A DNA stretch of 64,000 nucleotides from Yuukianura sp. NJ FZ-2021 (taxonomy: Eukaryota): assembly GCA_046563655.1 (NCBI GenBank), contig CM102287.1:9672001-9736000 (forward strand), read 5' to 3'. Shown piece by piece: positions 1 through 64,000 of this stretch. The position numbers and the translations under genes are program-made. Each line of letters opens with the position of its first letter. Within the stretch, counting starts at the first letter, position 1. Under the pieces are notes generated by a model. The model made no database searches, was not told the DNA's origin, and saw only the letters and a program-made list of their open reading frames with translations.

Positions 1-1027
1 ATTCTTGACGACGACATGTCGCTACTTCTGATGTCGCTCCGGAAGTCATTGACCTTCGACTTGACCTTGACCTGCTTGATTCTGCTCGTTTCTGTCTGGA
101 TGGGGATGAAGGCTGTTCCAGAAGATATTCGGGAATGTTTAGCGGCAGTTTTTGAAAAAGGAGGAAAGGCCGGTTGAGGTCAAGGTCAAAGACGAGGTCA
201 AGCGGAATTTGGTGTCCAGTGTGATTTGTTATGCTGAATTCTAATTGGACGGTTTCTGGAATACGGTCTTCTGATTGGCCAATCATTCTGGTCATGTTTA
301 TAGAGTAGAAGTTGCGATGTTTGGTCCAGCGGAAGTGATGATGCTAGGATTTTCAAAATTTGAATTTCAAGAATTCTAAAAACTGGATTTAAATTTTCAA
401 AATTTTCAATTTTTTAAAAACCTGTTGAGTTGTTCTAAAAGTGACGTGCAGAGTCACTTGAGCAGGAACAAAACCTGGATCTTGTTGGACATCTTTTCGA
501 AGTGTAAAGAGAAGCCGAATGGAATGGAAATCGCTTAAATTTTGACCAACTGAACTCAAGTTGTAAAAGGCTGTTCCATCTAGGATTCAAAATTTTTCAA
601 AATTTTGAAATTTCTTTTTAAAAAACGCTTAAGAGTTTAAATAGAACATTTGATTAGGCGGAACATGAAAGATTTTAGCGGCAAGCTTTTAAGTTCAGTG
701 AATTGCTAATTTTGTGGTTTGTTTATTTTAAATTGTTTAAAAAATTGACAACTTACGATGAAATTTTGATGGAAGAACGCTTTGAACTAAAGTTTGATGT
801 CCGGTCAAGTGATTTAGCATTTGACCTTGACCTGCAGAGGTCAAGAGGTCAAATAACTTAAGCAAATACACTGGAGGTGTTGATCTTGATCCATTTTGGG
901 GCAAATTGAGACGAATCGCTGATTCGCTGAAGCGCTGAATCGCTGATGAATGTCGCAGATGAACGAACGACAAAATGTCGCTCACGAGGCAGAGCAAAGT
1001 CAACGCTTGACTCACTTTCAGCGGCAT
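1..1027 (-). CDS. TGF-beta/BMP superfamily ligand precursor (3' end outside window)
   Basis: Exons 1027-757, 579-422 and 343-<1 join in frame at GT-AG. N-terminal hydrophobic signal (ALTLLCLVSDILSFV), prodomain motifs PPVYLLKLF and FYNLSSV, furin site RQKR, then the start of the mature domain (..ATCRRQE) at the window edge. Confidence 0.8.
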
Positions 1028-1777
1028 TCGTTTTCGAAATTTCAAAATTTCAGAAATACTTTTCCAAAAGATTTTTCAAAATTGAAATTTTGGAAAATTT
1101 TTGAAGTCAACTCTGTTCGAGGAATGAAACTGAGAGGAAGGAGGCACAGGTAATAAACTTCTTTTTTCTTTCTGCTTCAATCTGCGTGTGACTTTTAATT
1201 GTTCTCGGTGACAATTAATTAAGTTAAACAATTTGCAAATTTGCAATTTCAATTTGCAAATTATTGGCAGAGACTTTATAACATTATAACTTTTTAACAA
1301 TGAGGAAGGATGGTCCAGAACCGTCTCGAATGTTTCAATCTTTGCCCTTGCAAAAGAAGACTTTAACTTTGCCAATTTTTGCAAATTTGCAAATCTTACT
1401 CATTTTTTTAAAATGGAACTGTGGGAACTGGGTATTTGGTAACTTGATCTCTACTTAACATCTCATCTCTGATCTGCATCTTTTCAAATCTCTTTTTTGC
1501 AAATTCACACCAACAATTTAAAAATTTCTTAAATTATTTACAAAAACTTAAATGAAAAAACTTTAAACATTTTTGAAAAAAAGTTAAGCAAAAGTGAAAG
1601 TGAAAGAAATTGGATTTTTACAAGTTAAAGTTTTTAAAGGTAAATTTTCACATTTTTATTAAATGTTTAAAGAAAGCTCATTCGACAATTATTGGTTTTT
1701 GACTTAATTTAGTAATGAAAAATGTTGATTTTTGGATTGTTGATGATTTGGTTGTTGATGTTTTCACTGTTGCTTGT

Positions 1778-3505
1778 TTAGCACTTCGAGCCTTTTCCTC
1801 TCTTGACACGACGCTTCTTTTGAGGAGTGCAGGACTTGGATTTCGAAACTTTCCGAACTAAAAAATTAAAACAATTAGTCAATTAATAATCGAATTAAGT
1901 TAATTAATTGAAAAGTTAAGTTAATTAAAAATCGGTTTAAATTGTTTTACCTTTTTTCGTCGGACCACATGCAGATGCACGTGACCGACGACGTTTACCT
2001 CCTTTCCCTCCCGCCGACGAACGACCAGTTCTGGATCCTGAGGTCAAAGGTCAAAGGTCAAGTTTTTTAAAATTTTGAAAATCTTGAAAATGGACAATTT
2101 GAAAACTTACGTCGGCCTCCCTTTCGTCCGCCTCTCTTGGTCGGAGTGCAGCTTCCTCCTTTGGAGTTCCTCCGGCTTCCGGATCCTGAGGTCAAAGGTC
2201 AAGTTTTTTTTTAAATTTTGAAAATCTTGAAAAATGGAAAATTTGAAAACTTACGTCGGCCTCCCTTTCGTCCGCCTCTCTTGGTCGGAGTGCAGCTTCC
2301 TCCTTTGGAGTTCCTCCGGCTTCCGGATCCTGAGGTCAAAGGTCAAGTTTTTTTTTTTTTTTTTTAAATTTTGAAACTGGACAATTTGAAAACTTACGTC
2401 GGCCTCCCTTTCGTCCGCCTCTCTTGGTCGGAGCGCAACTCCCTCCTTTGGAGTTCCTCCGGCTTCCGGATCCTGAGGTCAAAGGTCAAAGGTAAAGTTT
2501 TTTTAAAATTTTGAAAATCTTGAAAATGGACAATTTGAAAACTTACGTCGGCCTCCCTTTCGTCCGCCTCTCTTGGTCGGAGTGCAGCTTCCTCCTTTGG
2601 AGTTCTTTCGGCTTCCGGATCCTGAGGTCAAAGGTCAAGTTTTTTTAAAATTTTGAAAATCTGGAAAATGGACAATTTGAAAACTTACGTCGGCCTCCTT
2701 TCCGTCCGCCTTTCGGAGTGCAACTGCCTCCCTTTGAACGTTTCCTGGTTTTGCTTCGTCGCACTTTCTTGCCAGGAGAACAGGAGCCTTTGCTGGATTT
2801 GCGCTTGCGCTGCTTCTTGCCAGGAGAACAGGAGCCTTTGCTGGATTTGCGCTTGCGCTGCTTCTTGCCGGGAGAGCAGGAGCCCTTCGTTTTTCTCGGC
2901 TTCTTCTCCTGGTTTGTAGGGGAGCAGGAGGCCTTGGTCGTTTGAGGCTTCTCTTCCGGTGGACAAGCCGAAGCTGACTTCCGACTTTGGCGCTCGTCGG
3001 TTCCACCTTCAGCGTTTTTCAGAGCATCCTGCTCCCGTTTCTTCTTCAGTCGCTCGCTGTGACGCGTAGGGTTGCCTCCTTTCGGGATTTTCTTCACGCT
3101 GTGAAAAAACAAGGTCAAAGGTCAACAGAGGTCAAAGGTTAAGAAAGGTCAAAGGTCAGCAGAGGTCATTTCACTTACACCCTGCCTGTCTTGGGCCCAC
3201 TTTTGCTCTTCTTCCCTCCTCCACTGCTTTTTGTGGACCTGTTGAGGTCAAATAAGGTCAAGTTCAAGGTCAAAAGTGGAGTAGAGGTCAATGACTTACT
3301 GTGCTCGCGACTTCGGTGGGTCACAGGCCATCTCGGAGTCGCCGGAGTCATTGGCCTCTTCCAAAAACGTCGAAGGCGTACGCCCAGTTCCAGTTTGTCC
3401 AGATTCTTCGACTAAAAACAGATTAATTGAGTTTACATTAATTGAATTTACTAATTTACTAGTAGTTTGGAAGATGTTCTGTGACGAGTTCTTACCTTCT
3501 GCCAT
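1778..3505 (-). CDS. Highly basic K/R/G/S-rich protein, protamine-like / sperm nuclear basic protein candidate
   Basis: Ten exons (3505-3496, 3411-3300, 3238-3179, 3098-2689, 2621-2547, 2472-2398, 2329-2255, 2185-2111, 2037-1951, 1857-1778) splice in frame. Repeats GSCSPGKKQRKRKSSK and RSGSRRNSKGGSCTPTKRGGRKGGR; many S/T-P-x-K motifs; AATAAA near 1655-1660. The gene model is solid; the function is inferred from composition. Confidence 0.7.
2031..2700 (-). repeat. Tandem array of near-identical 143-149 bp units, each one 75-nt exon plus one intron
   Basis: Directly visible: repeated ggatcctgaggtcaaaggtca...gaaaacttacgtcggcctcc units. Confidence 0.95.
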
Positions 3506-62851: not shown

Positions 62852-62914
62852 TATACCCTAGTTTTTTGAATTCAAAATTTTTCGAAATTTTTCAAAATGC
62901 TGATTTTCGTTTTT

Positions 62915-64000
62915 CTAGAGTCCTTCAAAATATTTTTTGAGCTTGCCAAAAAGTTCTTTGGAGTCAGCATGATCCGGGTAGTTCGCCAGTGCTTTTTGGA
63001 CAATCAAATAAGAATTTTGCAAGTCTCCAACCTAAAAACACATTCTTTTCAATGAAAAGTGTCAAAATTTCATAAAATTTTGAATTTTTGGTTACGCTGT
63101 CAGCGATTTTGGCTTCGTTGAACAACGGTTCGAACATGTGAGGTGCCAAGGACGCTGCAGTTTGAAAATAAGCGATGGCCAGATCAGCTCGGCCTTTACG
63201 TGCTTCCAGAACGCCAAGATTGTTGTACGCTTCTGCGTGATTGTTGTCTGATGAAATGGCGAGTCGGAAACACTGTCCAGCCCAAATTGTATCACAAAGT
63301 CCCTTATACAAAAATACTTTTTTCGAATTTCAGTTTTCAAAATTTTGAATTTTGAATTTTGAAAACATACCAGAGCAATGTGTCCCAAGTTGTACCAAAT
63401 TTCGGCAATGTTTTCATTAGAAGAAATGGTAAAAGCACGTTGAAAACAAAGCAAAGTCATGTCATATTGCTGAGAAGCAAAACAGCACAGGCCCAGGTTC
63501 ACAAAAAGTTCTGCCGTGTACAGCCCCATTTGCAAAAGACGCCTACATTTAAAAAAAGGCATTTTTTTGAATTTTTTTTTTCAAAATTTTGAAAAAAGTT
63601 TACCTGTAGAAACGTAGGCTGACTTCTGGTTGGTCAGTGTAGAAATGATGCATGCCGATACAAGCAATTGCTTCAATATTGGACGAATCTTGACTCAAAA
63701 CTTCTCTGTAGTGTCGCACACTTTGACTCACGTTTTGCAATCCTTCGTGAACTCTAAAAAACAGAAATTTTGGGAACATAAAATTTTGAAAAAGTTAAAA
63801 TTTTCAAAATTTCAATACCTTCCCATTTCAGTAAGAAGTGTGACGTCACCGGGAAACTTTTCCAGCCCACGCTGACAAACGTCGAGCGCTGCAAGCGGTT
63901 GATCCAGTTTGACATAAACTTTGGCCAGCCCAATGTACGTCACCAGCATCGGCTCAACAATCAGCGCTTGACGAAAGTATTTTTCAGCGTTTCTGGGTTG
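62915..64000 (-). CDS. TTC8: Tetratricopeptide repeat protein 8 / BBS8 (5' end outside window)
   Basis: LAKVYVKLDQPLAAL, NIEAIACIGMHHFYTDQPEVSLRFYRRLLQMG, LGLCCFASQQYDM, HAEAYNNLGVLEARKG, LAPHMFEP, YPDHADS. Confidence 0.93.

Follow-up and report, generated by a model that had tools for sequence, protein, structure and literature searches.

Exact copies of the word AGGTCA, preferentially paired, overlap coding and noncoding DNA in gene-sized domains of a 64-kb stretch of an animal genome

Analysis of a 64,000-nucleotide stretch of the nuclear genome of Yuukianura sp. (contig CM102287.1, positions 9,672,001 to 9,736,000; this whole stretch is called the window here, and positions are counted from its first base) revealed a large excess of one six-base word, AGGTCA, or TGACCT on the opposite strand, in exons, introns, and spacers. 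The closest described systems are nuclear-receptor response elements. AGGTCA half-sites arranged as direct repeats with a spacer of one base (DR1) or none (DR0), or as inverted repeats with a spacer of one base (IR1), are targets of nuclear-receptor DNA-binding domains; DR1 is the RXR/USP, HNF4, and COUP-TF/Svp type, IR1 is the idealized EcR/USP palindrome, and extended monomer sites also occur. The window shares with these elements the half-site itself, a preference for DR1 with some IR1 and DR0, a purine at position -1, and an A-rich position +1, and a perfect IR1 array in a promoter region also fits. It differs from them in its density (3.3 words per kb overall and up to 14.8 in one exon), in having sites inside exons and introns, and in lacking an enrichment of degenerate half-sites.

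Two further groups of systems invite comparison. Bacterial words (the uptake sequences of Neisseria and Haemophilus, cyanobacterial HIP1, Chi, and the words linked to very-short-patch repair) likewise consist of one exact word in excess, spread over coding and noncoding DNA in several reading frames and leaving recurrent peptides behind. Unlike these, the word described here lies in an animal nuclear genome with introns, in fixed-spacing pairs and in a gene-scale mosaic, and to our knowledge none of the uptake, RecBCD, or Dcm/Vsr mechanisms applies here. As in the window, the binding motifs of duons and homotypic site clusters share sequence with codons and skew the choice of codons and amino acids; in contrast to duons, a single word takes up to 60 to 70% of the synonymous opportunities in some genes of the window, which is orders of magnitude above the duon reports known to us. 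The pattern may be read as homotypic receptor-type sites that overlap codons. Literature searches at the level of listings and abstracts found no animal for which such an excess of one word is described, and we know of no described animal precedent, whether for selection or for drive.

The word occurs 209 times in the window (114 on the plus strand and 95 on the minus strand), or 3.3 times per kb overall, compared with a mean of 28.2 (standard deviation, 5.65; maximum, 50) in 100 dinucleotide-preserving shuffles, none of which reached 209. Measured against a first-order Markov expectation, AGGTCA was the strongest outlier among all hexamers (observed/expected ratio [O/E], 7.45; z, 34); the next three were GGTCAA and AAGGTC, which are shifted forms of AGGTCA, and then GACCTC/GAGGTC (G-AGGTC), which has five letters in common with it. 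Its 18 one-mismatch variants had O/E values from 0.36 to 1.89, and in the 38 kb classed below as word rich, one-mismatch words numbered 318 against 284 expected (O/E, 1.12), while the exact word numbered 190 against 15.5. Since the near-miss variants sit at expectation, the AGGTCA copies are either all very young or maintained; by our arithmetic, unconstrained copies could have diverged from the exact word by only about 3%. An old, decaying repeat was rejected on the same grounds.

Grouping words that lie no more than 30 bp apart gave 106 clusters, 54 of them single words and 52 with 2 to 8 words. Neighbors on the same strand were spaced by 7 bases in 33 of 48 pairs, by 6 in 10, and by 8 in 5, so that two half-sites at fixed spacing and orientation, a feature of response elements, are present in the window, though about half of the clusters are single. 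The DR1 form is usually AGGTCA-A/G-AGGTCA, and DR0 and IR1 are rarer; among 11 close inverted pairs of AGGTCA and TGACCT, 5 had a spacing of 7, which is the IR1 palindrome AGGTCA-N-TGACCT. Runs with a 7-base period carry most of the close direct pairs, the longest perfect tandem of the word has three units, and orientations across clusters are mixed and palindromic. Single words have a purine at -1 and A or T at +1, and they showed no near-miss partner at the DR1 position beyond chance. What is maintained within gene-sized domains is exact AGGTCA at the level of the DNA, irrespective of strand and preferentially in pairs. The overall set and its most regular array are as follows.

Positions 1 to 64000, both strands: 209 exact words in 106 clusters.
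Positions 3704 to 3772: tandem array (AGGTCAATGACCTTTGGG), 3.8 copies, with three perfect IR1 palindromes, in the divergent promoter that separates a basic-protein gene starting on the minus strand from the SLBP gene on the plus strand.

The excess extends into coding sequence, which we represented by 31 open segments totaling 15,744 bases that were Pfam supported, RNA supported, or long open reading frames (ORFs). They contain 73 words, compared with 16.1 ± 3.9 (maximum, 26) in 200 synonymous shuffles that kept every protein constant and permuted synonymous codons across the whole set; AGGTCA was the top hexamer here too (z, 14.8), and codon-order shuffles of 14 ORFs gave 5.9 words against 64 observed. 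With 73 words in 16 kb of coding DNA against 136 in the remaining 48 kb, the coding density is equal to or higher than the density elsewhere. The words fall in the reading frames as follows.

Frame S1, nAG-GTC-Ann (x-V-x): 26 words.
Frame S2, nnA-GGT-CAn (x-G-Q/H): 22 words.
Frame S0, AGG-TCA (R-S): 3 words.
Frame A1, nTG-ACC-Tnn: 12 words.
Frame A2, nnT-GAC-CTn: 10 words.
Frame A0, TGA-CCT (stop): 0 words.

Both strands are therefore represented (51 sense and 22 antisense words). Because the excess survives when proteins and codon usage are fixed, and because every stop-free frame is used, the pressure acts on the DNA and not on peptide or codon usage. Chance, base composition, codon or dicodon bias, and low-complexity proteins were rejected, as neither the dinucleotide nor the synonymous shuffles ever reached the observed counts. 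Local tandem duplication has multiplied some copies (five 144-bp units and 21-bp repeats encoding QKVIEQV), but such ordinary causes, even with a dispersed transposable element added to them, are hardly credible as the explanation of the whole: none of the 100 dinucleotide shuffles reached 209, none of the 200 synonymous shuffles exceeded 26 against 73, the flanks of the words are unique, and the highly biased exons of the ATP synthase alpha gene (ATP5A) use none of their 10 possible sites.

The pair structure also persists in exons. Direct pairs inside coding ORFs with spacings of 6 to 8 had a spacing of 7 in 9 of 14 cases, 6 in 2, and 8 in 3; outside coding DNA the corresponding counts were 23, 8, and 2. 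Because tandem duplication of 7 bases breaks the reading frame, the exonic DR1 pairs are not products of slippage, unless compensated. One consequence of the persistent spacing is that the pentapeptide [KEQ]VKG[QH] is common to four unrelated proteins (SLBP, VOMI, the ligand-gated channel, and a Q-rich ORF); [LMV]TxDL occurs twice in the channel. Apart from the channel, the coding regions that carry words include the following.

Positions 4892 to 5433, plus strand: second exon and 3' end of SLBP; 4 words in the nonconserved tail (FKVKV, EVKGQ); 4 of 10 possible sites used.
Positions 34293 to 37625, minus strand: VOMI-domain ORF and an acidic ORF of 872 amino acids; 22 words; 22 of 36 possible synonymous sites used.
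Positions 52964 to 55534, minus strand: Q-rich ORF of 557 amino acids and an ORF of 197 amino acids; 12 words, all sense; 12 of 21 sites used.
Positions 26237 to 32170, plus strand: carboxylesterase gene, seven Pfam-supported exon ORFs; 7 words; 7 of 18 sites used, an intermediate value.

In the SLBP gene, AGGTCAAGGTCA follows directly after the stop codon. The initial annotation had proposed that a DNA-level code or a sequence-specific mutational process shapes protein sequence across this genome and leaves recurring peptides; within the window, the idea of a DNA-level pressure withstood the codon-preserving shuffle and the use of every stop-free frame on both strands, and the peptides it named were found, namely KVK and EVK in the SLBP exon, QKVIEQV as 21-bp repeats at positions 34721 to 34821 in the ORF adjoining the VOMI domain, GQGH (together with VKGH) in the translation of the Q-rich ORF, and GQGQG, LDLDL, and LTFDL in the channel. 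Its gene names fared unevenly: a Pfam scan covering 292 of the 431 listed ORFs of at least 55 amino acids recovered SLBP, VOMI, and Neur_chan_LBD, but its label of a BMP gene is unconfirmed, since no TGF-beta/BMP domain was present among the ORFs scanned. No nuclear receptor gene was found among the same 292 ORFs. An exon of the esterase matched only a mollusc and a spider, at 46 to 49%.

The ligand-gated ion-channel gene offers a comparison with relatives.

Positions 56403 to 57749, minus strand: ligand-gated ion-channel ORF, a single open frame; 20 words (7 sense, 13 antisense); 20 of 29 sites used.

Its word density reaches 14.8 per kb, and DR1, DR0, and IR1 pairs all lie within the coding sequence. 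A word-indexed search found one relative, and an exhaustive search of 1.84 billion representative proteins found two with an E value of <1e-30, P0001 (42% identity) and P0122 (35%); the family is very sparse, and all other matches are distant Cys-loop receptors. When the three sequences were aligned, none of the 55 codons touched by a word faced a gap in P0001, and 1 did in P0122. These codons were of average to slightly lower conservation, with identities of 33% (P0001) and 25% (P0122) compared with 38% and 30% at other codons; examples are LDLDLHRVKVNDL against IGLNFHRVGINKL and FKVKGQQ against FKAKAQE, the former of the latter two containing a DR1 pair, so that at least one exonic DR1 pair is ungapped against the relatives. 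Positions able to encode the word number 6.4 per 100 residues in the channel compared with 3.0 in P0001, and the word-coded peptides are absent from both nearest relatives. Because the word codons align without gaps to the nearest relative, the channel words were made by point changes, including amino acid changes at tolerant positions.

Words also fill candidate introns, of which the following five sets were assigned.

Positions 2041 to 2637, minus strand: five tandem 144-bp exon-plus-intron units (4.6 copies), with introns ending in ...TTGACCT(T)TGACCTCAG.
Positions 3112 to 3168, minus strand: candidate intron (GTAAGTGAAA...TTTTTTCACAG) made up mostly of six sense TGACCT words.
Positions 3245 to 3290, minus strand: candidate intron (GTAAGTCAT...CAACAG) with four sense TGACCT words; the segment can also be read as part of an open frame, which makes its status uncertain.
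Positions 7526 to 7579, minus strand: candidate intron (GTAAAC...TTATTGTAG) with five sense TGACCT words.
Positions 11359 to 11406, plus strand: candidate intron whose 5' splice site, GTAAGGTCA at 11356, overlaps a word; one IR1 and four sense TGACCT words.

Their ends read GTAAGT...CAG, GTAAGT...CACAG, GTAAGT...CAACAG, GTAAAC...TGTAG, and GTAAGG...TCCAG. The word runs that the initial annotation had placed in introns (at 2041 to 2060, 3112 to 3168, 7526 to 7579, and 11359 to 11406) each lie within one of these GT..AG candidates, and its observation of words at splice junctions was borne out at 11356 and at 2041, where a word abuts the CAG acceptor. Among the paralogous introns at 2041 to 2637, the first two words are invariant and the 7-base unit is present two or three times; this variation in unit number indicates some slippage in noncoding DNA. 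The minus-strand gene concerned (2048 to 2884) encodes a very basic protein rich in K, R, S, P, and G; tandem duplication has copied entire units, introns included, and the 144-bp units are followed by 2.5 copies of a 48-bp coding repeat.

The five candidate introns contain 22 sense TGACCT words and a single AGGTCA. TTGAC fits the yUnAy branch consensus, with pyrimidines following, and the TGACCT orientation contains neither AG nor GT; the bias can thus be explained by splicing constraints that act on a strand-symmetric supply of words. The same bias, the fit to the branch consensus, and the excess of sense over antisense words in exons would also be expected if the words were RNA-level signals, with TGACCU serving as branch site and pyrimidine tract in introns and as a splicing enhancer, RNA modification site, or small-RNA target in exons. 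We regard this as very improbable, because exons carry many words in either orientation (7 sense and 13 antisense in the channel), words are also found between genes, in promoter DNA, and in palindromes, the strand totals are balanced (114 and 95), and avoidance of AG and GT accounts equally well for the intron bias.

The sequence around the words bears on whether they were carried in by mobile or repetitive DNA. When 100 bp on either side of all 106 clusters was compared with the words masked, the flanks were unique apart from the 144-bp tandem copies (three of four pairs tested >400 bp apart); the two remaining matches were short and weak (28 to 36 bp, 83 to 93% identity), one of them in a T run. 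The masked flanks being unique, the words are not borne by a transposable element, and a dispersed transposable element or miniature inverted-repeat transposable element was rejected, as the flanks share no common element.

Outside the window, a pattern scan of metagenomes for three DR1 units gave 120 loci; base composition predicts 96.5 words in their flanks, which held 243. Most of these loci have a GC content of at least 0.42, compared with about 0.39 for the window, and most of the 13 examined carry the 7-base runs within a longer recurring repeat; the higher GC and the recurring repeat indicate that these loci do not sample the genome studied here. Runs of (TGACCTT)n with 3 to 5 units were seen in invertebrate-like metagenome DNA (GC, 0.40 to 0.53), apparently inside dispersed repeats with conserved flanks (loci L003, L023, L038, L054, L055, L062, L087, L091, L106, L108, L111, and L118), and runs of the type GACGGACGGACAGAC lie near them in L003, L038, L106, L108, and L118. 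A transposable-element family that shares its 7-base module with the window may underlie these loci. Modules such as those in L003, L038, L055, L062, and L087 resemble the window in the 7-base unit, the short head-to-tail runs, and the variation in unit number; they differ in that the flanks in the window are unique, half of its clusters are single words, and its exonic pairs do not derive from slippage.

A likeness to interstitial telomere-like repeats is given by short dispersed runs and by the unit itself, which, read as TCAAGG or TCAAAGG, resembles T-A-G telomere motifs; the only near item in the literature searched lists TGACCT as a weak telomere-motif candidate in the beetle Geotrupes spiniger (PMC12134996). 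In contrast to such repeats, which run uniformly head to tail, the runs in the window have no more than three units, mixed orientation, palindromes, and exonic copies made by substitution, and the window contains no (TTAGG)2 or other canonical telomere dimer. Noncoding tandem repeats lie at 23524 to 23779, with a 30-bp unit (AAAACACCGTGAAAACTCG...), and at 19120 to 19185, whose 20-bp unit carries a TTAGG-like string in complementary form, CTAACCTAA.

Both likenesses favor a further explanation, in which TCAAGG- or TCAAAGG-type units were inserted at breaks by a telomerase-like or other templated activity, or by repeated transposon target-site duplication, and then gained or lost units by slippage, the copies being exact because they are recent. 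The dominance of period-7 runs (33 of 48 close direct pairs), the two or three units among paralogous introns, our own reading of the unit as a T-A-G motif, the beetle candidate, and the (TGACCTT)n modules of other invertebrate DNA would all fit. The longest perfect tandem of three units, the mixed and palindromic orientations, the 54 singletons, the absence of gaps at the channel words against relatives, the 7-base pairs within open frames, and the lack of a shared element in the flanks make it improbable, though less so than RNA-level signals.

The words are distributed as a mosaic. We sorted 2-kb bins as rich or poor by the word count itself, so the split is descriptive: rich bins (38 kb) hold 190 words against 15.5 expected, and poor bins (22 kb, about a third of the window) hold 13 against 9.1, which is baseline. 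The initial annotation had described the word as saturating the window; the enrichment is confirmed (209 words against 28.2 in shuffles, the top hexamer), but with 22 kb at baseline this description is too uniform. Cluster counts per 2 kb were overdispersed (variance, 7.9; mean, 3.3; chi-square, 73.9; P = 2e-5), and three gaps between clusters exceeded 3 kb, compared with 0.74 expected. The main word-poor stretches and the use of possible sites in individual genes are as follows.

Positions 19044 to 23031: largest gap between clusters, 3,994 bp.
Positions 57620 to 61109: second largest gap, 3,518 bp, adjoining the word-richest gene.
Positions 38042 to 43251, minus strand: word desert with 1 word in 5.2 kb, containing ATP synthase alpha, an AT-hook-like ORF, an ORF of 163 amino acids, and SNAPC1; 1 of 19 possible sites used.
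ATP synthase alpha exons: 0 of 10 possible sites used.
BBS4-like TPR exons: 0 of 8 possible sites used.
AT-hook, 163-amino-acid ORF, and SNAPC1 block: 1 of 9 possible sites used.
DM-domain ORFs: 4 of 7 possible sites used.

The desert takes in exons, introns, and spacers of three genes. Pooled, the poor genes used 1 of 28 sites and the others 72 of 131 (Fisher's exact test, P = 1e-7, with the grouping made post hoc). Word density rose with the GC content of a bin after removal of the words (rho, 0.52; P = 0.002) and showed no clear link to CpG observed/expected, a proxy for germline methylation that ranged from 0.65 to 1.16 (rho, 0.32; P = 0.08). Judging from gene names, the poor genes would be housekeeping and the rich genes tissue specific. 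RNA contigs from two metatranscriptome runs, compared over positions 34001 to 54000, matched only ATP synthase alpha and two short pieces of the AT-hook and 163-amino-acid ORFs; none covered an intron or exon that contains a word, and missing coverage elsewhere is uninformative. Over the same region, the best-supported 40 of 592 differences between two coded organisms (about 2% apart) included none within a word, where about one was expected, and contigs from the DNA runs matched partly at the word runs 38029 to 38055, 48360 to 48382, and 50629, which offers no more than a weak indication of such runs elsewhere. The ATP synthase alpha gene (a nuclear gene for a mitochondrial protein; 38560 to 40990, minus strand) contains no AGGTCA word at all; RNA contigs support its introns at 39298 to 39370, 39879 to 39963, 40187 to 40254, and 40460 to 40877, and it is closest to named decapods, cladocerans, and insects (about 83%), with fish further away (about 79%).

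The pressure is DNA level, strand symmetric, exact, structured in pairs, regionally on or off, and filtered by coding and splicing constraints. Our tentative preference, held at somewhat less than even confidence, is for dense, maintained DR1- and IR1-type sites that would be bound by a dimeric DNA-binding protein and preserved in certain genes by weak selection. The unit under pressure would be a paired site recognized by an abundant, dimeric, sequence-specific protein, and the word and its spacings would fit a DNA-binding domain of the nuclear-receptor type. Many weakly selected sites would be spread over the bodies and flanks of the channel, extracellular/VOMI, Q-rich, DM-domain, and esterase genes and the SLBP tail, while genes required more broadly (those for ATP synthase alpha and the BBS4-like protein, and the SNAPC1 block) would stay at baseline. 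Ordinary constraints would filter the copies, with the TGA frame never appearing in exons and introns keeping almost only the TGACCT orientation, and the recurrent peptides xVKG[QH], LTxDL, GQGQ, and KVKV could be side effects of this overlapping constraint.

Several observations weigh against that preference. The tolerated degenerate half-sites typical of response elements are not enriched in the window (AGTTCA, 1.15; AGGTGA, 0.96; AGGACA, 0.64); GGGTCA alone is raised (1.89), mostly beside exact words. The specificity for the word is sharper than that of any natural response element known to us, and 20 sites in an exon of 1.35 kb exceed any regulatory need that we know of. Single words without a near-miss DR1 partner make up 54 of the 106 clusters; the grouping into rich and poor genes is post hoc and draws on roughly a dozen genes from a single window of 64 kb; the contrast of housekeeping with tissue-specific genes comes from gene names only; and the word-filled introns are candidates assigned from the sequence. 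The proposed link to nuclear receptors draws on the word, the DR1 and IR1 spacings, and general knowledge of half-sites, and a conversion or repair bias guided by a similar protein would give nearly the same picture.

Such a bias would be a sequence-specific molecular drive without function: germline repair, mismatch correction, or short-tract gene conversion would turn near cognates into the exact word, perhaps guided by a protein that recognizes AGGTCA, possibly in pairs, with selection only filtering the outcome. The process would be active in some chromatin domains and inactive in others, for example in genes transcribed in the germline. We consider this somewhat unlikely in itself, and rank it nearly as likely as maintained binding sites. 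It explains the exact-only enrichment without a halo of variants at least as well as binding sites do; the near saturation of synonymous sites in some genes (20 of 29 and 22 of 36) with baseline use in others, the words made by substitution with amino acid changes at tolerant positions, and a coding density no lower than the noncoding density, which is hard to see as a regulatory need, are also consistent with it. However, the rich domains show no shortage of one-mismatch variants (O/E, 1.12), which consumption of near cognates might have caused, the DR1 preference in exons would require recognition of 13 bases rather than of a hexamer, and no such animal system is known to us or was found in the literature searched. 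In its boldest form, which is less likely still, an animal germline system guided by a protein would write the exact 6-base word, preferentially as 13-base DR1 pairs, in selected chromatin domains, overriding codons and tolerant residues. In outcome, this writing system would resemble bacterial uptake sequences or very-short-patch repair, and it may serve as a code marking domains or self.

If drive is the cause, the phenomenon would be categorically new. If the pattern is genome-wide, one DNA word would constrain thousands of codons, and this genome would be a natural system for gauging how far a noncoding signal, be it a binding site or a repair bias, can bend protein evolution; by extrapolation, if the density of the window holds over the approximately 200 Mb of contigs in the best DNA run, perfect sites available to any nuclear receptor of this species would number in the hundreds of thousands. 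Homology and domain assignments can be misled when unrelated proteins share recurrent peptides of this kind, and the sharp boundary between word-rich genes and word-free, putative housekeeping genes points to a class of chromatin or expression that is encoded in the sequence and could be read from the DNA.

Other features of the window were also noted. A second family of overrepresented words is AT rich, of the type AAATTTTGAAAA or TTTTCAAAATTT, and often forms short tandems or palindromes (for example, at 391 to 420, 586 to 606, 2064 to 2091, 47520 to 47553, and 52700 to 52730), with partial matches to contigs from other parts of the genome at such places, including 47551 and 52705. The segment from 44006 to 45339 has 10 to 16 times the contig word depth of its surroundings in both DNA runs, many partial contig matches, and few AGGTCA words, and is probably a multicopy transposable element. 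Positions 8345 to 8708 hold about nine copies of a coding-looking 30-bp tandem repeat that encodes a decapeptide of the KKLP/KKVP type and is without a family match. Pfam further identified gene fragments with a DM (doublesex/mab-3) domain at 61653 to 61937, a CRF-binding-protein N-terminal domain at 16425 to 16703, a PX domain at 46931 to 47134, and a calcium-binding EGF domain at 51919 to 52227.

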